Source: Natronolimnohabitans sp. A-GB9 (GTDB lineage Archaea > Halobacteriota > Halobacteria > Halobacteriales > Natrialbaceae). Taken from it: a stretch of DNA of 32,000 bases. Positions 31 to 30,425 of this stretch are shown here, piece after piece; position 1 is the first letter of the stretch; each line of letters opens with the position of its first letter. The notes under the pieces are model-generated. The model was given only the letters and a program-made list of their open reading frames with translations, had not been told where the DNA came from and searched no databases. The DNA lies in NCBI RefSeq assembly GCF_030848565.1, contig NZ_JAVDDV010000012.1, positions 1-32,000 on the forward strand. The letters are read 5' to 3'. A program made the translations under genes and the position numbers.

Positions 31-411
31 ATGAAACGCGTTATCAGCACCGACGATGCGCCGGCAGCCGTTGGCGCGTACAGTCAAGCGACGACAAACG
101 GCGACCTCCTCGTCACCGCGGGTCAGCTCCCGATGACGGCCGATGGCGACCTGCTAGACGACGAGCCCGTCGACGAGCAGACGAGACAGTGTCTCCGAAA
201 CGTCGAAGCGATCCTCGAGGCGGAGGGACTAGCGATGGAAGACGTCCTGAAGACGACCGTCTTCCTCGACGATATCGACGACTTCGAGGCGTTCAACGAG
301 GCCTACAGCGAGTTCTTCGAAGCGGAACCGCCCGCCCGCAGCGCCGTCGAGGCCGGCTCGGTTCCGAAAGGGGCAGCCGTCGAGATCGAGGCGATTGCGG
401 TCGCCGACTAA
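31..411 (+). CDS. ridA: RidA/YjgF/UK114-family reactive intermediate (enamine/imine) deaminase
   Basis: 126-aa ORF of typical family length. Family-typical segments: APAAVGAYSQA near the N-terminus and PARSAVEAGSVPKGAAVEIEAIA at the C-terminus. Acidic haloarchaeal composition. Confidence 0.9.
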   Translation: MKRVISTDDAPAAVGAYSQATTNGDLLVTAGQLPMTADGDLLDDEPVDEQTRQCLRNVEAILEAEGLAMEDVLKTTVFLDDIDDFEAFNEAYSEFFEAEPPARSAVEAGSVPKGAAVEIEAIAVAD

Positions 412-432
412 TACTGTCGGACAGCACTATTC
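409..432 (+). repeat. Half-copy of the palindromic repeat family, overlapping the ridA stop codon (TAATACTGTCGGACAGCACTATTC)
   Basis: 22 of 24 nt identical to 17969-17992. 23 of 26 nt identical to the reverse complement of 13944-13969. TAA at 409-411 is the ridA stop. Confidence 0.8.
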
Positions 433-518
433 AACGATCGGTCGCGCGACTGCGACCGTCCGCAAACGTATCGGCTCGAGTGACAACACTTACACTGTCG
501 GTCGCCTTCGGCCCCACT

Positions 519-2051
519 ATGACGACTGCACGTGGCGTCGTCGGCACGACACCGGCCGTCAGGGTATCCGGGCGGTCCGGTGACGCGACGGCGGTGCTCG
601 AGACGGCTCGAGAGGCAGCCGATACCGTCCAGATCGCCGAAGTCGGTCCGACGGGGGTCGACGCCCTCGATCCGCTCGTTATGGCCACCGTCGACGACTG
701 GACGGCGTTCGTCCCGCGGTGTTCTCCCGCCACCGTTCGGGACGTGATCGAATCGGTACGGAACGGCGAACAGCCGGCGTCGGCCTCGAGCGTCCTCTCT
801 CACGACGAGAACAGGGCGACGCTCCCGATCCCGGAGACGGGACCGCTCGCGGCCGGTGACCGTCGAGTTCTCGACGCCTGCGGCTGGGTCGTCCCGACAA
901 GCGAGGACGACTACCTCGCACGTGGCGAGCTGCTCGCTCGCGCTCGAGACGGTGACGAACTGCTGGAACGGGCGGCTGCAACCGGACTGTGCGGTCGCGG
1001 CCGCGGCGACATCGCCGCCGACGAACCGGTTGCCGACACCTGGCGAACGGTCCGGAAGGCCGACGGTGAGCCGGTCGTCGTCGTCCACGCCAACGAGGCC
1101 GATTCGCGGGCGACGGCCGACGCACTGTTGTTGGCGGCCGACCCGTTTGCCGTGATCGATCCCGCGGCCGCGGTCGCCGACGCCGTCGGCGCGCCGACGG
1201 TCGTCGTCTTCGTTACCGAGACCGAGGAGCGAGCGTATCGCAACGCGACCGCCGTCGCCGACGTCGTCGAATCCGTCGCGAACGTGTCGATCGACGTCGT
1301 CGCGGGACCCGACGAGTACGTCGCCGGCGAGCCGACGATGGCCCTCGAGGCCCTGGAGGGGAACGACCGCCTCGAGGCCCGACGCCGACCGCCGGGTCCC
1401 GAAGAGCACGGCCTCTTCGGACGACCGACCGTGTTACACACGCCGCGAACGCTCGCCCAGCTCCGACGGCTCGCGCTCGCGGACGGCGACCTCCCCGGTG
1501 TCGAGGACGATCCGGGGACGCGGCTGTTCGACGTCTGCGGCGACGTCGCCGCGACAGCGACTGTCGAACTCGCGACCGACGACACCCTCTCGACGCTCCG
1601 AGAGCCCGTTTCGCTCGAGGGTGAGCTGAAAGCCGCCGCCGTCGGCGGCGTCTTCGGTGGGCTGACGGAGACTCTCGACGTTCCGACGAACGCCGACGAG
1701 TTGACTGCGGCGGATCTCGACACTGCTGGGCCGGTCGAACTGCTAAGCCAGGATCGCTGTGCGGTCGCCTTTGCGGGTCGTCGGGCGGCGTTTGCCCACG
1801 AGGAAAACTGTGGGCGCTGTGTCCCCTGTCGCGAGGGGTCGACACAGCTCACCGAGTTGTTGCGCTCGGTGTACGGCGACGCGGACGCGATCGACGACGT
1901 CCGCGAGTTGGCTCGCGTCATGAACCGCTCGAGTCTCTGTGCGTTCGGCCGTGACGCTGCCCGGCCGGTGACGACGGCGCTGACCGCCTTCGAGTCCGAG
2001 TTTCTCGCCCACGCCGACGGGCGATGTCCCACTGGAGAGTGTTCAGAATGA
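519..2051 (+). CDS. NuoF-like (complex I 51-kDa family) iron-sulfur subunit associated with formate dehydrogenase
   Basis: In-frame ATG at 519 inside the 21..2051 ORF; upstream codons overlap ridA and are Arg-rich junk. C-terminal N3-type 4Fe-4S motif ENCGRCVPCREG...SSLCAFG. NuoF-like EYVAGEPTMALEALEG and RRRPPGPEEHGLFGRPTV segments. Its stop overlaps the fdhA start (ATGA at 2048-2051). Weak TATA-like ACTTACA about 28 nt upstream. Confidence 0.8.
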   Translation: MTTARGVVGTTPAVRVSGRSGDATAVLETAREAADTVQIAEVGPTGVDALDPLVMATVDDWTAFVPRCSPATVRDVIESVRNGEQPASASSVLSHDENRATLPIPETGPLAAGDRRVLDACGWVVPTSEDDYLARGELLARARDGDELLERAAATGLCGRGRGDIAADEPVADTWRTVRKADGEPVVVVHANEADSRATADALLLAADPFAVIDPAAAVADAVGAPTVVVFVTETEERAYRNATAVADVVESVANVSIDVVAGPDEYVAGEPTMALEALEGNDRLEARRRPPGPEEHGLFGRPTVLHTPRTLAQLRRLALADGDLPGVEDDPGTRLFDVCGDVAATATVELATDDTLSTLREPVSLEGELKAAAVGGVFGGLTETLDVPTNADELTAADLDTAGPVELLSQDRCAVAFAGRRAAFAHEENCGRCVPCREGSTQLTELLRSVYGDADAIDDVRELARVMNRSSLCAFGRDAARPVTTALTAFESEFLAHADGRCPTGECSE

Positions 2052-5000
2052 GTTCCGAGAATCCGATTCCACGCGTTCCCGACGTTACAGACCCACAACC
2101 GAGTACGCCGCTGACCGAGGACTTCGAGACCGGGACGGCAAACGACCCCGAACCCGCAGGCGCTACCGAACCCGCGACGCTGACCGTCGACGGCCGCTCC
2201 GTCACCGTCGACCCCGGCGCGACCCTGCTCGACGCCCTCGAGGAGGCGGGTGTTGCCGACGACGTACCGGCGCTGTGTCACGACGAGCACAGCGACGAGA
2301 TCGGGCCTCGCAGCACCTGTCGGACGTGTGTGGTCGAGACCGACAGTCACGGGCTGGTCCCTTCCTGTAGCTTCCCGGCCGAAGAGGGGCTGACGGTTCA
2401 CACCGACACGCCGGACGCGAGCGAAACGCGGGACGTCAACCTCGATCTGGTGTTGTCGAACCACAACCTTCGGTGTACGACCTGTGGGAAAAACGGCCGC
2501 TGTGAACTGCAGGATACGGCGATCGAACAGGAGGTCGAAGATCCCCGCTACGGTGTCTTCGACGACCGCGAGGCGTACGAACCCCTCGACGACACCTCGC
2601 CGTTCATCCAGATCGACCGCAACAAGTGCATTCTCTGTAACCGCTGTGTCGAAGCCTGCAACGACGTCCAGGTCGAGGGCGTCCTTCGTCTCGAGGGCAG
2701 CGGCTCGGACACTCGAATCGCCTTCCAAAACGACAGCGAGGCGATGGCCGCCTCGAGTTGCGTCTCCTGTGGCCACTGTGCGACGGTCTGTCCGACGGGC
2801 TCGATCACCGAAACGGGACTCGCAGATAGCGCGACGCTGCCGATTCCCGGCTTTACCCAGAAGAACTCGATCGGGACGACCGTCGACTACGACCCCGACG
2901 ACGCTGGCGCTCCCGCGACCGCGTCGGGTGCGGCGACGGCTGCCGAGGGCGGCGACGACGAGGAACTGTCGGGCGTCGCCGGCCTCATGGCACGAGCGAA
3001 ACGAAGCGCCACCGATCTCGGCGAGCGCGCCTTCCTCGAGGCCGAACACGCCGCCGAACACGTCGCCTCGAGCGTGCTCTCGGAGGGGCAGATGTTCGAT
3101 ATCGCCGAGGCAGTTTCCGACCACCGCCTCGCGGACGTCGAGGCGACGGAGACGACCTGTGGCTACTGTAGCGTCGGCTGTCGGTTCGACGTCTACACCG
3201 ACGACGAGGAAGTGCTGGGCGTGCGTCCGATCGACGCCGACCACGCGCCGGCCAACGACGGCTTCTCGACGTGTGTCAAAGGCAAGTTCGGCTACGACTT
3301 CGTCGACAGTGACGGCCGTCTCGAGCAGCCACTCGTCCGCGACGACGGCGAACTTCGCGAAGCGAGTTGGGAGGAGGCCCTCGCGCGGGTCGTCGAGGGG
3401 CTGTCGTCGATCCGTGAGGCGGCGGGGCCGGACGCGATTTCGTGTTTCGCCTCCTCGAAGTGTACGAACGAGGAGAACTACCTGATGCAGAAGTTCGCCC
3501 GGCAGGTCCTCGGAACGAAAAACATCGACAACTGCGCGCGACTGTGTCACTCCTCGACGGTGGCGGCGCTCAAACAGACCGTCGGCTACGGCGCGATGAC
3601 CAACCGGATCGAGGACGTCGCGAACACCGACTGTTACCTGATCACGGGGTCGAACACGACCGAGAGCCACCCGGTGTTGGCGACGCGGATCAAACAGAAC
3701 GTCCGCGACGGCGCGGAGCTGCTCGTCTTCGATCCGCGGAAGGTCGGCATCGCCGACCACGCCGACCAGTATACGCGCGTCGAGCCGGGCCACGACGTCG
3801 CCTGGATCAACGGGCTCACTCGGTACATCATCGAACACGACCTCCACGACGAGGCGTTCATCGAGGAGTGGACGACGAACTTCGAGGAACTGAAGCGGAA
3901 AGTCGAGCCGTTCACGCCGGCGGAAGTCGAACGCCTCTGTGGGGTCGCTCCGGACGACCTCGCCACGGCGGCGGAGACGATCGCGACCGCCGAGACGTGC
4001 GTGTTCGGGTGGGCGATGGGGATGACCCAACACTCCCACGGCACACAGAACGTGTTGGCGCTGGCGAACCTCGCGCTGGTGACCGGCCACCTCGGGAAGC
4101 CGAACGCGGGGCTGTCGCCGTTTCGTGGCCACAACAACGTCCAGGGCGGCGGTGGTGACATGGGGACGCTACCCGACAGCCTGCCGGGATACCAGCCGGT
4201 CGACGATCCCGACGTCCTCGAGGCGTTCGAAACCGTGTGGGGCGAGCGGCCCCCCAGCGAACCCGGGCTGACAGTACCGGAAGCGTTCACGGAAGCCCAC
4301 GAGGGCAACGTCCGGGGGATGTACGTGATGGGCGAGAACCCGGCGCTGTCCGAACCGGCTCTCGGCCACGCCGAGGACGCCCTCGAGGAACTGGACTTTT
4401 TGGTCGTCCAGGACGTTTTCCTGACGGAGACGGCCGAGCACGCCGACGTCGTGTTGCCGGCGGCGAGTTTCGCCGAGAAGGCGGGGACGTTTACGAACAC
4501 CGAGCGCCGGGTCCAGTTGGTGAATCAGGCGCTGTCACCGCCGGGGGCGGCCCGCCAGGACTGGGCGATCCTCCAGGCGCTTGCGACTCGCTTTGGCTAC
4601 GAGTGGGACTACGAGTCGCCAGCCGAGATCATGGACGAGATCAACGAGCTGGTGCCGATTTACGGCGGGATTTCCCACGAGCGCCTCGAGTCGGAGGGCG
4701 GGCTGCAGTGGCCGTGTCGGGACGCGGCGGATCCGGGGACGCCGTATCTCTACGCGGACGGGTTCAACTTCGAGGACGGGAAGGCCCGGTTCGTGCCGGC
4801 CGACCTCGGCCAGCCGGGCGAGTTGCCCGACGAGGAGTATCCGTTGACGCTGACGACGGGACGGGTGCTGTATCACTTCCACACCGGGACGCTGACGCGG
4901 AAGGTCGACGGGATCATGTCCCACGTCGGCGAGAGCTTCGTCGAGATCAACCCCGAGACGGCCGATCGACTCGGTGTTTCGGACGGCGAGACCGTGACGG

Positions 5001-5239
5001 TCGAATCACGTCGAGGTGCGATCACCGTCCGCGCACAATTGACTGACCGCGTCGATCCGGGCGTCGTCTTCATTCCGATGCACTTCGCCGCCGGCGCGGC
5101 CAACGAACTCACCGGCGAGTCGTTCGACCCCATCAGCGGCATCCCCGAGTACAAGGTCTCGAGCGTGCGGATTCCCTCCGAGGGCGAGCTGGATATCGAC
5201 GGCTCCTCGAGTGCGCCGGTAGCGGCCGACGACGACTGA
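2048..5239 (+). CDS. fdhA: Formate dehydrogenase alpha subunit (molybdopterin oxidoreductase with N-terminal 2Fe-2S and 4Fe-4S domains, Cys-type active site)
   Basis: 2Fe-2S Cys pattern ALCHDEH...CRTCVVE...PSC. NuoG-like HNLRCTTCGKNGRCELQ. Two ferredoxin motifs, CILCNRCVEAC and CVSCGHCATVCP. MopB cluster TCGYCSVGCRF. Active-site region NCARLCHSSTV carries Cys with no in-frame stop. The track ORF starts at 2024, but the ATG at 2048 gives ATGA coupling to the upstream gene. Confidence 0.9.
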   Translation: MSSENPIPRVPDVTDPQPSTPLTEDFETGTANDPEPAGATEPATLTVDGRSVTVDPGATLLDALEEAGVADDVPALCHDEHSDEIGPRSTCRTCVVETDSHGLVPSCSFPAEEGLTVHTDTPDASETRDVNLDLVLSNHNLRCTTCGKNGRCELQDTAIEQEVEDPRYGVFDDREAYEPLDDTSPFIQIDRNKCILCNRCVEACNDVQVEGVLRLEGSGSDTRIAFQNDSEAMAASSCVSCGHCATVCPTGSITETGLADSATLPIPGFTQKNSIGTTVDYDPDDAGAPATASGAATAAEGGDDEELSGVAGLMARAKRSATDLGERAFLEAEHAAEHVASSVLSEGQMFDIAEAVSDHRLADVEATETTCGYCSVGCRFDVYTDDEEVLGVRPIDADHAPANDGFSTCVKGKFGYDFVDSDGRLEQPLVRDDGELREASWEEALARVVEGLSSIREAAGPDAISCFASSKCTNEENYLMQKFARQVLGTKNIDNCARLCHSSTVAALKQTVGYGAMTNRIEDVANTDCYLITGSNTTESHPVLATRIKQNVRDGAELLVFDPRKVGIADHADQYTRVEPGHDVAWINGLTRYIIEHDLHDEAFIEEWTTNFEELKRKVEPFTPAEVERLCGVAPDDLATAAETIATAETCVFGWAMGMTQHSHGTQNVLALANLALVTGHLGKPNAGLSPFRGHNNVQGGGGDMGTLPDSLPGYQPVDDPDVLEAFETVWGERPPSEPGLTVPEAFTEAHEGNVRGMYVMGENPALSEPALGHAEDALEELDFLVVQDVFLTETAEHADVVLPAASFAEKAGTFTNTERRVQLVNQALSPPGAARQDWAILQALATRFGYEWDYESPAEIMDEINELVPIYGGISHERLESEGGLQWPCRDAADPGTPYLYADGFNFEDGKARFVPADLGQPGELPDEEYPLTLTTGRVLYHFHTGTLTRKVDGIMSHVGESFVEINPETADRLGVSDGETVTVESRRGAITVRAQLTDRVDPGVVFIPMHFAAGAANELTGESFDPISGIPEYKVSSVRIPSEGELDIDGSSSAPVAADDD

Positions 5240-5321
5240 TACGGACTGCTGTCCCGATTACCCGCCGATCGCCGCCCCCGTCCTGGCGATCGCCGGTCGG
5301 TGACGACAGGAGACCGTATGA
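5237..5321 (+). repeat. 85-nt nested-hairpin repeat element (MITE-like or structured 3' UTR) beginning with the fdhA stop codon
   Basis: TGATACGGACTGCTGTC...GACAGGAGACCGTATGA. Terminal inverted repeats pair 14/16. Inner GC-rich palindrome built around GGCGATCGCC. Loop GCCCCCGTCCT. Same length as 17421-17505 and about 80% identical to it by eye. Confidence 0.8.
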
Positions 5322-13339: not shown

Positions 13340-13399
13340 CGATACTGCCGGACAGCAGCCACGCGGCCGATCGGTGCATCGTGCTGTCCGGCAGTATGA
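13340..13399. repeat. Inverted pair of repeat-family half-copies forming a perfect 16-bp stem
   Basis: ATACTGCCGGACAGCA (13342-13357) and TGCTGTCCGGCAGTAT (13382-13397) are exact reverse complements separated by a 24-nt loop. The right arm ends in TGA. Confidence 0.85.
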
Positions 13400-13864: not shown

Positions 13865-13943
13865 GACAGATCTTTTCCCATCGGACTACTGATAGACAGC
13901 GATTCGGCTCACCACTCCTCGAGGACTGTCGTGCGACCGAGCG

Positions 13944-13969
13944 TTGCATAGTTCTGTCCGACAGTATGA
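13944..13969 (-). repeat. Half-copy of the repeat family, minus orientation
   Basis: The reverse complement TCATACTGTCGGACAGAACTATGCAA matches 409-434 at 23 of 26 positions. Confidence 0.75.
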
Positions 13970-14186
13970 GTGATTCGTCGCAGCTGCGACCTCTTCAGTG
14001 TACACCGTTATGGACGGTCGTACGGCCGGATAATTGGTAGCATCCCTTCGACCATACTCTTATAACGATCCCCGAGACAGTGTGTGACATGCTCATACGG
14101 TCGATCGAGACGGACCCAGCGGTGACACTCTGTTCCGGTGGGCGCGAACAGTCGTGGAAACGAGCACAACGGAGACCAGTACAGCG

Positions 14187-14843
14187 ATGTCGATAACGGT
14201 CAAAGCATACATCGAACACGACGAGCTCGCCCTCGTCCCGACGCTACGGCGCCTCGAGGATATCGAGATCGAAGTGATAACGCAAGCGAACACCGACCCG
14301 GACTCCGACGTCTTTCCGTTTCTCATCGAGTACGACGATCCCGACGAACTGGAGGCGTATCTCGACCGCGATCCGACTATCGACAGGTACGAACTCGTCG
14401 ACGCAAACGACGGGACGTTCATCTACTACATCGAACATCCGAACGGAACGCAGTTGTTGAGTCCCGTCGTCACGAGTGTCAACGGGTTCATGCTGCGTGC
14501 GGAGACCAGACGCCGCGGCTGGTTCGTCCAACTCCAGTTGCCGGGTCGAGATGCGCTCAATACGATCTGGGAGTACGCAGCGGAGTGTGACATGAACTTC
14601 GACATCATCGAGGTGTATGGGAACACGGATACCGGAACGAACGTCTCCTTCGGGCTGACTGACGAACAGGTCGAGGCACTCACGACGGCCTATCGATGTG
14701 GCTATTTCAACGAACCGCGGGACATGGCACTGAGCGACGTCGCCGACGAGATCGGTGTCTCCTCGACGGCGATGAGCGGTCGGCTTCGGCGTGGAATGCG
14801 AAACCTGATCTCCGCAGCGCTGATCGACGAGGACACCGAGTGA
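14187..14843 (+). CDS. Bat-type HTH_10 transcriptional regulator (bacterio-opsin activator-like DNA-binding protein)
   Basis: C-terminal LTDEQVEALTTAYRCGYFNEPRDMALSDVADEIGVSSTAMSGRLRRGMRNLI is the HTH_10 signature. ATG at 14187 (MSITVKAYIEH) preferred over the GTG at 14154. Confidence 0.85.
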   Translation: MSITVKAYIEHDELALVPTLRRLEDIEIEVITQANTDPDSDVFPFLIEYDDPDELEAYLDRDPTIDRYELVDANDGTFIYYIEHPNGTQLLSPVVTSVNGFMLRAETRRRGWFVQLQLPGRDALNTIWEYAAECDMNFDIIEVYGNTDTGTNVSFGLTDEQVEALTTAYRCGYFNEPRDMALSDVADEIGVSSTAMSGRLRRGMRNLISAALIDEDTE

Positions 14844-14890
14844 TGCGGCCTTCTGTCGTCACTGATACCGTCGGATAGCAGTCCGTATGA
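14841..14890 (+). repeat. Short composite copy of the repeat family (both terminal arms, no central hairpin), starting with the regulator's stop codon
   Basis: TGATGCGGCCTTCTGTCGTCAC + TGATACCGTCGGATAGCAGTCCGTATGA. The arms align to the left and right arms of 17421-17505. CGTTTTC follows. Confidence 0.7.
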
Positions 14891-14930
14891 GCCTCGTTTT
14901 CACCGATCGCCTCGAGCTGGCTCTCGAGGA

Positions 14931-15159
14931 AATCCAAATATAAACCATCAATTAGTTTGTCATCTATATATCCTTCCGTATTACGCTTTTAGAACGTGAA
15001 TAGCCTACTTCACTCTAATAATTAAAATCGTATTTACATTTATAATGTGTAGAACTGTCGTTTGACGGGTGAACTGAGTTCCCCGCCATATATCGGGTAC
15101 TTAAAGACAGGGAATATTACTCGTCAAACGTCATTTATGTGTGTGTCAATAGCAACCCT
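14931..15159. promoter_or_regulatory. AT-rich (about one-third GC) intergenic island with several TATA-like boxes and a 9-bp inverted repeat, upstream of HalOD1-aor
   Basis: Sharp composition drop relative to the flanks. Boxes TCTATATATCC, TTTATAATG, CCATATATC and ATTTATG (15133-15139, about 24 nt upstream of the ATG at 15160). CGTTTGACG (15059-15067) and CGTCAAACG (15122-15130) are inverted. Confidence 0.55.
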
Positions 15160-15456: not shown

Positions 15457-17406
15457 ATGACTGCTATTGGCGGCTTTCAGGACCACGTTGCACGAATCGA
15501 TCTCGGAACCGACGGCGTCGCGTACGAGGGAATCGACGAGGCGGACGCGAAGAAGTACATCGGGGCCCGTGGCCTCGGCGTGAAGTACGTCTTCGACCAG
15601 GGGCCGGACGTCGATCCGCTCGGGCCGGACAACCTGCTGGCGTTTATGAACGGACCGCTCTCGGGAACGCAGACGACGATGAGCGGTCGAATCGCCGTCT
15701 GTACGAAGTCGCCGCTGACCGGCACCGTCACGGACAGCCACCACGGTGGCTGGTCGGGTGCCCGCCTCAAGTGGGCCGGTTTCGACGGACTCCTGTTCGA
15801 GGGTCAGGCCGAGGAACCGGTCTATGCCTACGTCGAGGACGGGGAGGTCGAACTTCGCGACGCCGCTCACCTCTGGGGGATGGGCGTCCACGAGACCTGT
15901 GAGACGGTCGAGGAGGAGGTCGACGGCGAGTACGGCAAGAACCTCTCGATCATGGCGATCGGACCTGGCGGCGAGAACGAGGTCCGGTATGCCTGCATCA
16001 TGAACGAGGACGACCGGGCGTCCGGTCGCGGCGGCACGGGCTGTGTGATGGGCAACAAGGGGCTGAAAGCGATCGTCATCAAATCGGCCACCGAAATGCC
16101 CCAGCCGGCGGATCCGGAGACGTTCAAAGAGGGCCACCAGCAGGCGATGCAGGCGATCACCGAATCCGACGTCACCGCACCCAACGAGGGTGGCCTCTCG
16201 ATGTACGGGACGAACGTCCTGATGAACATGACCGAGGAGATGGACGGCCACCCGACGAAAAACGGCCGCTACACGTCCGGCGACGCGTACAACGAGGCCG
16301 AAGCGGACGGCGAGACGGTGATCGACGCCGAGCGGATCAGCGGTGAGAACGTCCGCGAAAACATCCTCGTCGACGAGCCGACCTGCCACTCCTGTCCGGT
16401 CGCCTGCAAGAAGGAAGTCGAGGTCGACGTCATGCACAAAGGCGAGGAGATGAACGTCCGGATGGAGTCCTACGAGTACGAGTCCGCCTGGGCGCTGGGG
16501 ACCAACTCGCTCAACGACGACCGCGATACGATCGCCGTGATGATCGACCGCTGTAACGACATGGGGGTCGACACGATCGAAGTCGGCAACATCCTGGCGA
16601 TGGCGATGGACGCCACCGAGAACGGCTATCTCGAGGACGTCGGGGACGGTGACGGCATCGACTGGGGTGACGCCGACACGATGATCGAGATGATCGAACG
16701 CATCGCTACCCGTGAAGGCGAACTCGCGGACCTCCTCGCGGAGGGCCAGGCGCGCTTTGCCGACGCTGTCGACGCTCACGACTGTCGACTCGACGTCAAG
16801 GGACAGGCGATTGCTGCCTACGACCCACGCTGTATGAAGGGGATGGGAATCGGCTACGCTACCTCGAACCGTGGTGCCTGTCATCTCCGAGGGTACACGC
16901 CAGCGGCCGAAATCCTGGGCATCCCGGAGAAGGTCGATCCCTACGAGCACGACGGGAAAGGCGAACTCACCGCGCAGTTCCAGGATCTCCACGCCATCTC
17001 CGACAGCTTCGACATCTGCAAGTTCAACGCCTTCGCCGAAGGAATCGAAGAGTACGTCCTCCAGTACAACGGGATGACCGGCCTCGACGTCACCGAGGAC
17101 GAACTGCTCGAGGCCGGCGAGCGCATCTACAACTTAGAGCGCTACTACAACAACCTCGTCGGCTTCGACGGCGACGACGACTCCCTGCCCGAGGTCTTCC
17201 TCGAGGAAGGCGAGACGCCCGGTCAGGGCGCAAGCGAAGGCGAGTACTGTGAACTCGAGGCGATGAAAGAGGAGTACTACGACCACCGCGGCTGGGTCGA
17301 CGGGGTCGTCCCTGACGAGAAACTCGCAGAACTCGAGATCGAGATTGGTCCCGGAACCGGCGTCAGCAGCGGGGGAAGCGGCGCGGCGGCTCCGTCCGAC
17401 GACTAG
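15457..17406 (+). CDS. aor: Aldehyde:ferredoxin oxidoreductase (tungstopterin AOR family)
   Basis: 649 aa. N-terminal AOR_N segment: ARIDLGTDGVAYEGIDEADAKKYIGARGLGVKYVF...MSGRIAVCTKSPLTG. 4Fe-4S ligands CHSCPVACKK plus a downstream Cys. The AOR catalytic-domain pattern runs throughout. Confidence 0.9.
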   Translation: MTAIGGFQDHVARIDLGTDGVAYEGIDEADAKKYIGARGLGVKYVFDQGPDVDPLGPDNLLAFMNGPLSGTQTTMSGRIAVCTKSPLTGTVTDSHHGGWSGARLKWAGFDGLLFEGQAEEPVYAYVEDGEVELRDAAHLWGMGVHETCETVEEEVDGEYGKNLSIMAIGPGGENEVRYACIMNEDDRASGRGGTGCVMGNKGLKAIVIKSATEMPQPADPETFKEGHQQAMQAITESDVTAPNEGGLSMYGTNVLMNMTEEMDGHPTKNGRYTSGDAYNEAEADGETVIDAERISGENVRENILVDEPTCHSCPVACKKEVEVDVMHKGEEMNVRMESYEYESAWALGTNSLNDDRDTIAVMIDRCNDMGVDTIEVGNILAMAMDATENGYLEDVGDGDGIDWGDADTMIEMIERIATREGELADLLAEGQARFADAVDAHDCRLDVKGQAIAAYDPRCMKGMGIGYATSNRGACHLRGYTPAAEILGIPEKVDPYEHDGKGELTAQFQDLHAISDSFDICKFNAFAEGIEEYVLQYNGMTGLDVTEDELLEAGERIYNLERYYNNLVGFDGDDDSLPEVFLEEGETPGQGASEGEYCELEAMKEEYYDHRGWVDGVVPDEKLAELEIEIGPGTGVSSGGSGAAAPSDD

Positions 17407-17420
17407 TGGCGGTCCACGCC

Positions 17421-17505
17421 TGATACGGTCTTCTGTAGTCAATTACCGCCGATCGCCGACCCCGTCCTGGCGATCGGCGGTAACTAGTTACAGCAGTCCG
17501 TATGA
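17421..17505 (+). repeat. 85-nt nested-hairpin repeat element, 15 nt after the aor stop codon
   Basis: Outer arms GATACGGTCTTCTGTA / TACAGCAGTCCGTATGA. Inner perfect 15-bp stem TTACCGCCGATCGCC (17443-17457) / GGCGATCGGCGGTAA (17469-17483). Loop GACCCCGTCCT. Twin of 5237-5321. Confidence 0.85.
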
Positions 17506-17551
17506 ACTGCTGGGTCGAATCCTGCGGTGTCGTCCGATTCGACCCAGCAGT
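17506..17551 (+). terminator. Perfect 15-bp stem-loop directly following the 85-nt element
   Basis: ACTGCTGGGTCGAAT (17506-17520) and ATTCGACCCAGCAGT (17537-17551) are exact reverse complements with a 16-nt loop. The arm shares ACTGCTG and ATTCGA with the repeat family. Confidence 0.5.
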
Positions 17552-17592
17552 CGACGGGTGGAACGGTACTAAACTGGCTGGTCACCGTCCGT

Positions 17593-17620
17593 GAGACCGT
17601 ATGATACGGACTGCTCCGAC
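17593..17620. repeat. Back-to-back junction of two repeat arms sharing one TGA (GAGACCGTATGATACGGACTGCTCCGAC)
   Basis: The left part matches the right end of 5237-5321 (GAGACCGTATGA). The right part matches its left end (TGATACGGACTGCT). Confidence 0.65.
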
Positions 17621-17626
17621 GACCAC

Positions 17627-17633
17627 AATATTT
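17627..17633 (+). promoter_or_regulatory. TATA-like box AATATTT for the ASCH gene
   Basis: Centred about 30 nt upstream of the ATG at 17660. Confidence 0.35.
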
Positions 17634-17659
17634 GAGACGAACGCGCCGAATCGATACGT

Positions 17660-17971
17660 ATGGCACGCATCGACGCAGCCGAGTTACTGCCGGCAGAGCG
17701 GATCAGACGAAAGGCCCTCGAGGGCGAGATCACGCAGTTACACCGCGGCGATCCCCACGCAGCGGAGGGCGATACCTTCGTCATCGAGGAGACGGTCTTC
17801 GAGGTCACGAACGTCGAGCATCGACGATTGGGCGAACTCACCGACGAGGATGCCCGTGCGGAGGGGTCGCCGAACCTCGAGGCGTACAAGCGCCGCATCG
17901 AAGCGACACACGACACCGAATGGGACGACGAGAGCGAGGCGGTGTTACACGAGTTCGAGCCGCGCTCGTGA
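17660..17971 (+). CDS. ASCH domain-containing protein (PUA-like fold)
   Basis: 103 aa. ASCH-like pattern: GDTFVIEETVFEVTNVEHRRLGELTDEDARAEGSPNLEAYKRRI. Confidence 0.7.
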   Translation: MARIDAAELLPAERIRRKALEGEITQLHRGDPHAAEGDTFVIEETVFEVTNVEHRRLGELTDEDARAEGSPNLEAYKRRIEATHDTEWDDESEAVLHEFEPRS

Positions 17972-17992
17972 TACTGTCGGACAGCACGATTC
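17969..17992 (+). repeat. Half-copy of the repeat family overlapping the ASCH stop codon (TGATACTGTCGGACAGCACGATTC)
   Basis: 22 of 24 nt identical to 409-432. Sits in the 36-nt convergent spacer before the HTH_10 gene end. A CGAGGGC...GCCCTCG stem follows. Confidence 0.8.
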
Positions 17993-18007
17993 GAGGGCAA
18001 GACTCGA

Positions 18008-18742
18008 TCAATCGCCCTCGGCGGTCGGCGACACACGCTGTGTCTCCGCACGCAACACGTCTCCCTGCGTTTCGGTCAGGAGTCGCACGAACTGCCCGGC
18101 GTTCGTGACGAGTTTGTTCTCCGCCTTCCGCAGGTGTTCTTCGAAGGTCGCCCTGGCGACGGTCGTCTCTTCGGCGAGTTCGGCGACCGACGCGTTCCGG
18201 GGCTGGTCGTAGTAGCCCGCGTCCAGCGCGATCCGCAGGGCCTCGAGTTGGCGATCGGTGAGCCCGTCGAATAGACGGTCGACCGAGAACAGCGAACTGT
18301 GAGGGACGTGGCGCTCCTCGATCGAGGTCTTCGAGAGGACGTCGATCTCCCGATCCTCGTCGAGTTCGGCGAGCAAGGCAGTGACGTCGCTCTCGTCGAA
18401 TCCGATCGCGGAGTAGTGCTCCCAGCCGTTTCGGTACACCGTCGGCGGGAGGTGTACGCAGTTGTGGCGCTCGAACCGACGGATGATCGACTCCTCGATG
18501 GGACAGGCACACGACTGGACGATCACGTGCAGGTCCGAGCCGTCGATCGTGGTGTGAAGCACCGACCCGAGTTCGTCGATCTCCTCGAGCAGTTCGTCGT
18601 CGCCGGCCTCCGGCGCGGTGAGCTCGAGGATTTGGCAGTCCTGGAGGTACCACTCCCGGATCGACACCGCCGGAAACCGCTCGGAGAGCCCCCGGTAGGG
18701 ACACTCGTGGCGGAGTTTAAACGAGACTTCGTACATGCTCAT
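18008..18742 (-). CDS. Bat-type HTH_10 transcriptional regulator
   Basis: Start at MSMYEVSFKLRHECPY (ATG at 18742). C-terminal LTDRQLEALRIALDAGYYDQPRNASVAELAEETTVARATFEEHLRKAENKLV is the HTH_10 signature. Divergent from the rhodanese-MBL gene. Confidence 0.85.
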   Translation of the reverse strand: MSMYEVSFKLRHECPYRGLSERFPAVSIREWYLQDCQILELTAPEAGDDELLEEIDELGSVLHTTIDGSDLHVIVQSCACPIEESIIRRFERHNCVHLPPTVYRNGWEHYSAIGFDESDVTALLAELDEDREIDVLSKTSIEERHVPHSSLFSVDRLFDGLTDRQLEALRIALDAGYYDQPRNASVAELAEETTVARATFEEHLRKAENKLVTNAGQFVRLLTETQGDVLRAETQRVSPTAEGD

Positions 18743-19944: not shown

Positions 19945-21255
19945 ATGAGCGGCGAGTACGCACAGGGAATCCGTCGGAACTGGCAGCAGTTCACCCTGCA
20001 GATCGTCACGGTCTTTGCCGTCGGGCTCACGATGGGCTCCCAGCGCAACGTGGTGCCCATCATGGGCGAGGAGACCTTCGGCGTCGAGTCGCTTCTCGTG
20101 ATCGGCTCCTTCGTCGTGAGTTTCGGGATCGTCAAGGCGATCCTCAACCTGTATTCGGGGAAGTGGGCCGACGCCTACGGCCGGAAACCGATCCTGATCG
20201 CGGGCTGGGTCGCCGCCGTTCCGATTCCCTTTATCCTCATCTTCGCGCCGAGTTGGAGCTGGATCGCGGTCGGGAACGTCCTGCTCGGGATCAACCAGGG
20301 CGTTGCCTGGAGCATGAGCATGATCTCGAAGATCGAACTCGCCGGCCCCGACGAGCGTGGGCTCGCCGCCGGGCTCGACGAGGCCTTTGGCTACACCGGC
20401 GTCGCCGCCGGGGCGTGGCTGACGGGCGTGATCGCCGCTCAGTACAGCCTCCGGCCGGAGCCGTTCTACTTCCTCGCGGCGGTGATCGTCGTCGCCCTGC
20501 TGATCGCCGTCGTCCTGATCGAGGAAACGCTGCCCTACGCGAAAGCGGAAGCGGAAGGACTCGACGACGACGGCGTCGAAGCCGACGGCGGAAAGAACGA
20601 GGCCGACCTCTCCTTTACCGAGATCGTCAAGCGTGCGACCTACAAGGACCGGACGCTGTTTACGGCCGCACAGGCGGGCCACGTCGAGAATTTCGTCGAT
20701 ACGCTCGTCTGGATCGCCTTCCCGCTGTTCCTGGTCGCTCAGGGCTTAGACGTCGCTCAGGTGGGAGTCGTCGTCGGCGTCCACAGCGCCGCGTACTTCC
20801 TGCAGGTCTACACCGGCCGACTCGGTGACCGTGTCGGGCGCAAGCCGCCGATCGTCGCCGGCTTCTTCCTCGCCGGCGCGGGCGTCCTCGGGATGGTGCT
20901 CGTCGAGGGGTATTACCTCTGGATCCTCTTTTCGGGGCTTTCGGGCGTCGGGATGGCACTGCACTACCCCAATCTGATCGCGGTCGCCAGCGACGCGGCC
21001 CACCCCCTGTGGCGCTCGACCGGCCTCGGTGTCTACCGGCTCTGGCGTGATCTGGGCTACGCCGTTGGGGCCATCCTCATCGGCCTCTCGGTCGATCTGC
21101 TCTCGATCGAGGCCGCCTTCTACGGTACCGCCATCGCGATGTTCCTCTCCGGCGGACTGGTCGTAATCTGGATGGAGGAGACCCACCCCGACTTCGGCAC
21201 CCACGAGCCGCCGTCGGTCGACCTCGAGGCCAGCAAAACCGGGTCCGAGGATTGA
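19945..21255 (+). CDS. MFS transporter (12 TM)
   Basis: 436 aa. MFS loop motif GKWADAYGRKPIL after TM2 and its repeat GRLGDRVGRKPPI in the second half. Starts 3 nt after the upstream stop. Confidence 0.85.
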   Translation: MSGEYAQGIRRNWQQFTLQIVTVFAVGLTMGSQRNVVPIMGEETFGVESLLVIGSFVVSFGIVKAILNLYSGKWADAYGRKPILIAGWVAAVPIPFILIFAPSWSWIAVGNVLLGINQGVAWSMSMISKIELAGPDERGLAAGLDEAFGYTGVAAGAWLTGVIAAQYSLRPEPFYFLAAVIVVALLIAVVLIEETLPYAKAEAEGLDDDGVEADGGKNEADLSFTEIVKRATYKDRTLFTAAQAGHVENFVDTLVWIAFPLFLVAQGLDVAQVGVVVGVHSAAYFLQVYTGRLGDRVGRKPPIVAGFFLAGAGVLGMVLVEGYYLWILFSGLSGVGMALHYPNLIAVASDAAHPLWRSTGLGVYRLWRDLGYAVGAILIGLSVDLLSIEAAFYGTAIAMFLSGGLVVIWMEETHPDFGTHEPPSVDLEASKTGSED

Positions 21256-21275
21256 CTGCCGGACAGCAGTCCGTA
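21253..21275 (+). repeat. Repeat-family copy starting with the MFS stop codon (TGACTGCCGGACAGCAGTCCGTA)
   Basis: Contains the CTGCCGGACAGCAGTCCGTA core, which joins both sub-blocks of the family. Confidence 0.7.
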
Positions 21276-21420
21276 CCAGTCGGTGCGACACAGCCACGAT
21301 CGGTCTGCGGTTTCGCCGGGTCACAGCACGGGGAACGTCTCCACCGCTCGCATTCGTCTGTCTACTGTTGCGAGCGAGGCAAACACTTATCGAATACACC
21401 GGTCTATGTTAGCGTGGATC

Positions 21421-29811: not shown

Positions 29812-30425
29812 ATGGAACGCTATGATCTAACAACCGATGTCTGGAGGCTCGATGCGACGGACTTTCCAGCCAACGAGCTGCTCACGAAACGTGTGCGATT
29901 TCTCCTCCAGTACGCCATCTTCGCCCCATCGAGTCACAACTCTCAACCCTGGGAGTTCGTCATTGATACTTCCGGACAACACGATGCACACACCGATCGC
30001 ACTCGAGACGCGATCGGGTGTTTACTGACTGTTGTCCGGTAGTATGAGAACGAACAACTAAGATCCACGCAGACGACGATCGCTGGCTTGAGGTGGTGCT
30101 ATCGAGAATTTCTGTATTGCTGCCGAACGGTTCGACCTCGATTTCGATACCGAATATCACAACGATACACCACCAGTCGTCATCACGCTTCAGCCCGATA
30201 GTGAGCCATCATCCGACCGTCCGCCAGAACTGTTCAAGATCGGTCAGATCTTCGAACGCATAGCTTTGACTGCGACCAGCAACGACGTCGCTGCCCACCC
30301 GATGAGCCAGGAACGGGGTGAAACCCCGCGACGGCAGCATTTTGGCATCAGAACGAACCGAAATCGAACGTCGTACCGACGACCATCGTGAGCCGACTTA
30401 CCGTCTCGAGTATTCGAATCGCGAA
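29812..30425 (+). pseudogene. Decayed nitroreductase-family gene (frameshifts, premature stop, probable internal deletion)
   Basis: Frame 1 gives RFLLQYAIFAPSSHNSQPWEFVI, then a stop at 30040-30042. Homology continues in frame 3 (KIHADDDRWLEVV, from 30060) and frame 2 (GGAIENFCIAAERFDL...GQIFERIALTATSNDVAAHPMSQE, 30092-30391). Confidence 0.6.

Follow-up and report, generated by a model that had tools for sequence, protein, structure and literature searches.

The locus examined here raises the question of what kind of sequence can sit directly on the stop codon of a haloarchaeal gene. In a 32,000-nt stretch of the Natronolimnohabitans sp. A-GB9 genome (NCBI RefSeq assembly GCF_030848565.1, contig NZ_JAVDDV010000012.1, positions 1 to 32,000; hereafter the window), an 85-nt hairpin begins on the stop codon of an fdhA-like open reading frame (ORF), and a similar hairpin follows an aor ORF. 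A preliminary description, made from the letters of the sequence only, offered as candidate explanations a miniature inverted-repeat transposable element (MITE) with a 3-bp TGA target duplication, a structured 3' untranslated region (UTR) or terminator, and a 3'-derived small RNA. We consider it very probable that both 85-mers belong, as copies, to a non-autonomous DNA transposon, that is, a MITE moved by a transposase acting in trans, with duplication of a TGA/TCA target. It is the first of the three candidates that is borne out, the evidence being the statistics of the flanks, the palindromic consensus of the target, one exact empty site, and copies that are identical although they lie at unrelated loci. 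The fusion to the fdhA stop codon is a consequence of TGA-duplicating insertion.

Structure and flanks of a dispersed element

The two segments (5237-5321 and 17421-17505), both 85 nt long, align without gaps and are identical at 65 of 85 positions (76%); their relatedness had been recognized by eye, although at a somewhat higher identity of about 80%. Both have TGATACGG as left end, CCGTATGA as right end, and TGA on either side. The true terminal inverted repeats (TIRs), TACGGACTGCTGT / ACAGGAGACCGTA, pair at 11 of 13 positions, and the 16-nt ends that include the TGA pair at 13 of 16 rather than at the 14 counted before, while the two internal mismatches do fall at identical positions in both copies, as had been reported. 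Equally in line with the earlier account, the inner stem of the aor copy (TTACCGCCGATCGCC / GGCGATCGGCGGTAA) is a perfect 15 bp, and the apical loop, G[C/A]CCCCGTCCT, has like orientation in the two copies. Each 85-mer forms a single long hairpin, with energies of -40.7 (z -4.9) and -47.7 kcal/mol (z -8.9), respectively, and the opposite strands fold equally well. Alignment, folding, and ORF calling thus confirm two nested hairpins bracketed by TGA, the left TGA of the first being the fdhA stop codon. The upstream genes are, as proposed, both for molybdenum/tungsten (Mo/W)-pterin oxidoreductases: ORF 2024..5239 encodes a 1071-aa molybdopterin oxidoreductase (Pfam), and the aor ORF (15457..17406) a 649-aa aldehyde:ferredoxin oxidoreductase, with copy 2 lying 14 nt past its TAG stop (17404-17406). 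The latter protein is 100% identical to its counterpart in Natronolimnohabitans sp. A-GB9. Both motifs greatly exceed chance in the window as judged by shuffle controls, with 10 matches to the terminal 16-mer at ≤3 mismatches (0.13 expected) and two to the core motif (0.00 expected).

Related copies are dispersed across haloarchaea. The pattern ATACGG.CT.CTGT-N30-60-ACAG.AG.CCGTAT, in which only the terminal repeats are fixed, was run on the GTDB species-representative genomes and matched at least 107 DNA stretches in haloarchaeal genomes. Among the matches listed, nearly all are from Natrialbaceae (Natrinema, Haloterrigena, Natrialba, Natronorubrum, Natronococcus, Natrarchaeobius, Salinadaptatus, and Halostagnicola), with others in Haloarchaeobius, Halorhabdus, Haloarcula, and some metagenome-assembled genomes. 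BLAST with the 85-mers located plasmid copies in Natronorubrum bangense (several per plasmid), Natronorubrum daqingense, and Haloarcula; overall, BLAST placed copies on plasmids of Natronorubrum, Natrinema, Haloarcula marismortui, H. hispanica, Halococcus, and Halostella, and a 40-nt terminal query matched plasmids including those of H. marismortui, H. hispanica, Halococcus, Halostella, and Halomontanus. No family copies were found on viral contigs. In the MITE-bearing DNA that was sampled (about 900-930 kb, in loci here given L numbers), a profile search recovered ~137 copies, and body length, measured from ATAC to GTAT, has a sharp peak at 81-82 nt. The family, hereafter family 1, appears to have been described nowhere yet: we found no description of it in the searchable literature, where only general classes turned up (MITEs, palindrome-associated transposable elements or PATEs, and small mobile repeats or SMRs), and no entry for it in Rfam.

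The flanks of the 117 pattern matches read TG..GA in 55 cases and TC..CA in 48, the other 14 being mostly one-base deviations. In full, TGA..TGA or TCA..TCA encloses 103/117 matches, and none of the 117 family 1 pattern matches is enclosed by TAA or TTA. From these counts, the element is therefore TACGG...CCGTA, ~79 nt long, between direct T-G/C-A repeats. When copies are oriented by their TGA, the flank logo reads GAC-TGA-G(A/T)C, a 9-bp palindrome centered on the duplicated triplet. It is kept in the 54 copies without a gene fusion (C at -1 in 38/54, C at +3 in 33/54), and because it is present there, it reflects a target preference and not codon context alone. Both orientations of the body are found with respect to the flanking TGA (T.T state, 41 copies; A.A state, 32), and loci L014 and L017 carry whole-body inversions in one and the same TGA frame. 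The mismatch that marks position 7 of the ends, A.A or T.T, inverts jointly with the asymmetric spacers. In alignment A4, columns 7/77 are unpaired in 83 of 103 copies, with A.A or T.T in most, and columns 10/74 are a second, frequent non-pair; since both non-pairs recur, the left and right ends are systematically different. The family-wide invariance of the TIRs (TACGGNCTNCTGT / ACAGNAGNCCGTA) is not independent evidence, as it is fixed by the search pattern.

Insertion and the association with stop codons

An occupied and an exact empty site were found at the nhaC stop codon of two Natrialba species. In Natrialba taiwanensis, the gene ends in GACGAC TGA, followed by 79 nt and a second TGA; in Natrialba asiatica, it ends in GACGAC and a single TGA. 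Aligned, the two loci differ by a gap of exactly 82 nt, that is, the 79-nt element plus one 3-bp repeat, and the nhaC orthologs are 97% identical as protein, with near-identical flanking DNA. A looser case is the cation:proton antiporter gene of Natronorubrum bangense, which has the element on its stop codon and orthologs without it in N. magadii and Natronosalvus. Identical 81-nt bodies between unrelated flanks occur at two loci of Natrialba taiwanensis (L054, L111) and on the chromosome and a plasmid of Natrinema gelatinilyticum (L108, L104). An older insertion is shared by Haloterrigena sp. H1 and Natrinema hispanicum at an orthologous locus, where the element is more diverged than its surroundings. 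Orthologous locus pairs among the sampled loci contained no empty sites, their indels being unrelated, and plasmid BLAST returned no ortholog of a Natrinema locus. The SUI1 gene 3' of the inserted element in Natrialba taiwanensis (L118:11734-12141) was called at 135 aa with a start inside the MITE, compared with 111 aa in Natrialba asiatica without the insertion (L115:3224-3559); the longer call is probably a gene-calling artifact introduced by the element.

Family 1 combines the traits of a MITE: it is short and non-coding (79 nt, too small to encode a protein), has TIRs and a duplication of fixed length, and is present as dispersed, polymorphic copies. The 13-nt TIRs and the palindromic interior allow the whole element to form one hairpin, and a transposase provided in trans would insert it at T-G/C-A within the palindromic 9-mer GAC-TGA-G(A/T)C. 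Staggered 3-nt cuts, presumably made by DDE-type chemistry, would duplicate the triplet and leave TGA...TGA on one strand with the body either way round. Given this target preference, stop codons would be favored sites, at which insertion would do the gene no harm.

In 39-40 of about 100 copies, the flanking TGA ends a long frame whose third codon positions have a coding-like G+C content. Under a stricter gene call, 26/92 copies use the flanking TGA as a stop. Similarly, a frame of at least 100 codons was open in the TGA frame of 48/88 copies, compared with 10/88 and 19/88 for the control frames. Copies at or within 30 nt of a gene 3' end number 36 of 92, and only one of the 92 lies inside a coding frame. 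The observed share of stop-codon sites, 28%-39%, compares with a chance share of ~15%, which is a rough figure taken from typical gene density; the 1.8% computed with the strict gene caller is not usable, since that caller missed more than half of the genes. TGA accounts for the majority of called stops (216/388), and GAC is the commonest codon before it (42/216). Because the preferred 9-mer has GAC-TGA as its left half, stop codons are favored as targets, and because the duplication restores TGA, insertion there leaves the protein untouched. The association with stop codons is thus one of target preference and purifying selection. Hairpins that look fused to stop codons are explained in this way without a new RNA, the 3-bp target of the transposon being itself a stop codon. 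Such stop-adjacent hairpins could pass for terminators or small RNAs in annotation, and the copies are usable as strain-typing markers. The element also points to a transposase that recognizes GAC-TGA-GWC.

Counter-evidence and competing explanations

Several observations weigh against a MITE and are taken together here. Only one exact empty site was obtained, and the ~13 nt right after it are more diverged than the remaining flank. Moreover, the inner stem, which unlike the TIRs lies outside the constraint of the search pattern, covaries: in the 103-copy alignment, 12/15 pairs are changed on both sides, so that the compensatory changes the preliminary description had asked after are indeed present. 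The covariation score was reached by 0/500 shuffles, inner-stem pairing is 88% compared with 27%-43% in slid controls, and one of the pairs is found as U-A (46 copies), C-G (37), or A-U (4). Covariation of this strength is not expected from simple neutral MITE decay. The apical loop adds a further feature. Its consensus, GACCCGTCCT, is conserved at ~70% per site in the main subfamily, a value inflated by orienting the sequences by their loop, and differs in other subfamilies. The loop stands in both orientations relative to the remaining body, even in near-identical copies within one genome; in Natrinema gelatinilyticum, L057:4184-4264 (AGGACGGTC) and L095:6915-6995 (GACCGTCCT) have the 9-nt loop exactly reverse-complemented between the same spacers and flanks. 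Family-wide, loop and body are loosely tied, with 48 copies showing the commoner arrangement and 24 the alternative one. Template switching on the hairpin may produce both one-step "compensatory" changes and loop inversions, or else the covarying stem and flipping loop may reflect selection for a hairpin required in transposition.

A partner transposase is also missing from the DNA searched. The ~930 kb of MITE-bearing DNA held no autonomous element with related ends, and a half-site census of it found no transposase-bearing element with such ends. Pairs of the form TSATACGG...CCGTATSA gave 10 matches, two of which were checked (an orthologous SDR locus in L018/L021, a chance match, and two neighboring MITEs in L046), none with a transposase candidate. 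A more general search of the sampled loci for TAC...GTA ends with a T-N-A duplication, combined with an end-complementarity test, yielded no partner, nor did the features under terminal 40-nt BLAST matches on haloarchaeal plasmids or the DNA within ±10 kb of a recent insertion. An ordinary MITE with a matching transposase, as envisaged in the preliminary description, was therefore not what the sampled loci and plasmid BLAST matches revealed. The only transposase inspected, that of an IS630 element on a Natronorubrum bangense plasmid, belongs to an element with unrelated ends; it is the sole transposase in the 100 kb annotated of this 115-kb plasmid. Translations read for the genes between closely spaced copies (L046, L100) were lipoprotein-like or of a membrane protein, with no transposase. 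Beside an IS630-family element on Natronorubrum bangense plasmid unnamed4, ~8 kb (L116:26400-34250) contain no annotated coding sequence or ORF of at least 170 aa.

The IS1031 group of the IS5 family has 5'-TNA-3' as preferred target and an exclusive 3-bp repeat (PMC12016507). T-N-A duplications are likewise seen in family 1 (TGA/TCA) and in a second family of the window, described below (TGA/TCA, occasionally TAA/TTA). From this exclusive signature, an IS5-family, IS1031-like partner may be guessed at, as a lead and not as a statement of membership; counting against it, the one IS1031-group end quoted in the literature (GAACCTGTCTAGTATCT) starts with GAACCTG, unlike TACGG. Among eukaryotes, the related PIF/Harbinger-Tourist elements are likewise marked by an exclusive 3-bp T-N-A duplication, which Tourist and mPing share with IS1031-type MITEs. 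Like the MITEs of these two groups, family 1 is short and non-coding, with TIRs, a 3-bp T-N-A duplication, and insertion in either orientation; unlike them, it targets TGA/TCA only and resides in archaea, and its ends start with TACGG, against GAACCTG in the one IS1031-group end. As no partner transposase was found in the sampled DNA, membership is tentative.

Transposase-free repeats of haloarchaea have been classed as MITEs, PATEs, and SMRs (PMC3119063). The MITEs and SMR-A/B of Haloquadratum walsbyi resemble family 1 in their size of 80-110 bp, prominent inverted terminal repeats, and high copy number, and for the SMRs, too, no transposon with related ends is known (PMC3119063). Compared by description only, SMRs differ in having TIRs without a duplication and a preference for IS605-type targets, whereas family 1 has a 3-bp duplication at GAC-TGA-GWC. 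PATEs, which are IS200/IS605 derivatives, are similarly palindromic, transposase-free, abundant in haloarchaea, and placed beside a short fixed oligonucleotide; however, they have subterminal palindromes without TIRs, a single orientation, and no duplication, whereas family 1 has TIRs, a duplication, and two orientations. Among bacterial repeats, Correia/NEMIS, ERIC, RUP, and REPIN sequences share with family 1 a length of ~80-150 nt, an end-to-end hairpin, and a co-transcribed 3' UTR or intergenic location, but duplicate TA or nothing. To our knowledge, none of these bacterial hairpin repeats has a stop-codon preference via TGA duplication.

The alternative that survives best, although we regard it as improbable, is a single-stranded hairpin moved by an IS200/IS605-type or RAYT-like Y1 (HUH) transposase, in the manner of PATEs or REPINs, which would insert 3' of a TGA and bring its own right-end TGA without a true duplication. 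The whole element does form one hairpin on either strand, the inserted segment is equally readable as TACGG...CCGTATGA placed 3' of TGA, and IS605-type elements and their transposase-free derivatives are abundant in haloarchaea (PMC3119063). Nonetheless, a strand-specific mechanism predicts one orientation, whereas the body lies both ways round relative to TGA, and the target preference GAC-TGA-G(A/T)C is symmetric on both flanks. Family 1 also has true TIRs, by the absence of which PATEs are defined, and no long element with the same ends was found in the sampled DNA. An IS200/IS605-like insertion 3' of TGA, suggested within the window by the two TGAs and by apparent nesting at 17506-17604, was rejected on the same grounds of two orientations and a symmetric target.

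Less probable still is a functional structured RNA placed after genes, as a 3' UTR stabilizer, terminator, or 3'-derived small RNA, and spread by selection for that role. Co-transcription is probable for the copies at or near gene 3' ends, a mean folding energy of about -44 kcal/mol marks a very stable hairpin, and its inner stem shows the compensatory changes described above. However, the preliminary description had named random orientation relative to genes as a sign against such a role, and this is what the stop-fused copies display: body orientation is split 14 to 20 and loop orientation 12 to 15. The sense strands of these copies fold no better than the antisense strands (mean difference -1.1 kcal/mol, p = 0.2), and a T-run follows within 40 nt in only 4 of 39. 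Certain copies are located between divergent gene starts, in promoter regions, as in L001 between a phosphoribosyltransferase gene and thiC, and the empty site shows the element to be inserted and not a conserved part of the gene. No window match was obtained with Rfam 15 at gathering thresholds, and relaxed thresholds returned sub-threshold generic miRNA-hairpin models only, the best being mir-5880, which scored 32 bits where its threshold is 97 bits. An oriented RNA or terminator function is thus not supported as the primary nature of the element, although co-transcribed hairpins may have a secondary role in mRNA fate; should they act on mRNA 3' ends, the effect would extend to hundreds of genes per genome.

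Finally, chance, or a duplication specific to two Mo/W-pterin oxidoreductase genes with a common 3' flank, has next to nothing to recommend it beyond the pterin-dependent enzymes upstream of both window copies, given window motif counts far above shuffle controls and >100 copies beside unrelated genes in many genera. Family members follow genes with no relation to one another, among them those for antiporters, a glycosyltransferase, an aldehyde dehydrogenase, and a DNA ligase, and the common pterin-enzyme context of the window copies is therefore coincidental.

A second family and other features of the window

Besides family 1, the window contains a second, related family of hairpin MITEs, family 2, whose end TACTGCCGGACAGCA matches the window nine times compared with 0.52 expected. 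In other genomes, family 2 copies are ~105-110 nt long, and their flanks (TCA 10, TGA 8, TAA 1, and TTA 1) are T-N-A repeats as in family 1. Read by eye, the ends of the two families have the 12-mer GGACTGCTGTCC in common, in opposite orientation. Jointly, the families account for ~10 copies or remnants in the 32-kb window (Table 1). The end on the stop codon of the MFS transporter gene was at first read as a solo family 1 right end, a reading since replaced by a family 2 left end.

Table 1. Positions in the window of family 1 and family 2 copies, their parts, and remnants, as read under the MITE interpretation
Feature	Coordinates	Strand	Details
Left TGA of copy 1	5237..5239	+	Target-site duplication and stop codon of fdhA-like ORF 2024..5239
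Family 1 MITE copy 1, 79 nt	5240..5318	.	nhmmer with family profile, E = 1.3e-8
Parts of copy 1	TIRs 5240-5252, 5306-5318; inner stem ~5262-5273 with 5285-5296; apical loop 5274-5284
Right TGA of copy 1	5319..5321	+	Second copy of target-site duplication
Family 1 MITE copy 2 with both TGAs	17421..17505	.	Element 17424-17502; nhmmer E = 2.4e-13
Parts of copy 2	TIRs 17424-17436, 17490-17502; 15-bp stem 17443-17457 with 17469-17483; loop 17458-17468
Family 1-like copy, 50 nt, internally deleted or degenerate	14841..14890	.	Weak fold, -13.7 kcal/mol, z -0.8
Abutted ends	17593..17617	.	Right-end-like GAGACCGTA, TGA, left-end-like TACGGACTGCT
Full family 2 copy	29964..30047	.	78-nt body 29967-30044; TIRs TACTTCCGGACAACA / TGTTGTCCGGTAGTA; TGA each side
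Short family 2 copy, 54 nt	13340..13399	.	13343-13396, TACTGCCGGACAGCA...TGCTGTCCGGCAGTA; flanks CGA and TGA
Family 2 left end	21253..21278	+	On TGA stop of MFS transporter gene 19945..21255; partial copy at 21254
Family 2 left half	409..453	+	Directly after TAA stop of ORF 31..411; partial copy at 412
Family 2 right half	13928..13969	+	Ends ...TCTGTCCGACAGTA then TGA; partial copy at 13952-13966
Family 2 left end	17969..17986	+	TGA before; partial copy at 17972

A wider proposal, which we put forward tentatively and think rather unlikely as a whole, is that haloarchaea harbor a superfamily of at least two related TGA-seeking hairpin MITE families, mobilized by a new transposase and with an actively maintained hairpin. 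Active maintenance is suggested because the inner stem covaries, the loop occurs in both orientations, and the A.A/T.T end mismatch is conserved. Under this proposal, the enzyme would read folded DNA, or the hairpins in 3' UTRs would have been co-opted, for example against 3'-to-5' mRNA decay.

The 50-nt family 1-like copy again uses a stop codon, its left TGA (14841-14843) being that of a BAT/HTH_10 regulator gene (14154..14843). The abutted ends at 17593-17617 are probably a remnant of adjacent or nested insertions, which is an interpretation only. Directly past copy 2, at 17506-17550, lies a perfect 16-bp hairpin whose arms start with ACTGCTG, as in the terminal repeat. The whole of 17506-17617 may be what remains of insertions that were nested or in tandem, or else an end-to-end junction. 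Between 17600 and 18800, long overlapping ORFs without a Pfam match run on both strands (17601..18212 on the + strand, 17838..18704 on the - strand), and a family 2 left end lies in this region. A markedly A+T-rich segment at 14930-15140 stands out in the G+C-rich window; it separates the BAT/HTH_10 regulator gene from HalOD1 and aor and may be a promoter or regulatory region of the latter two.

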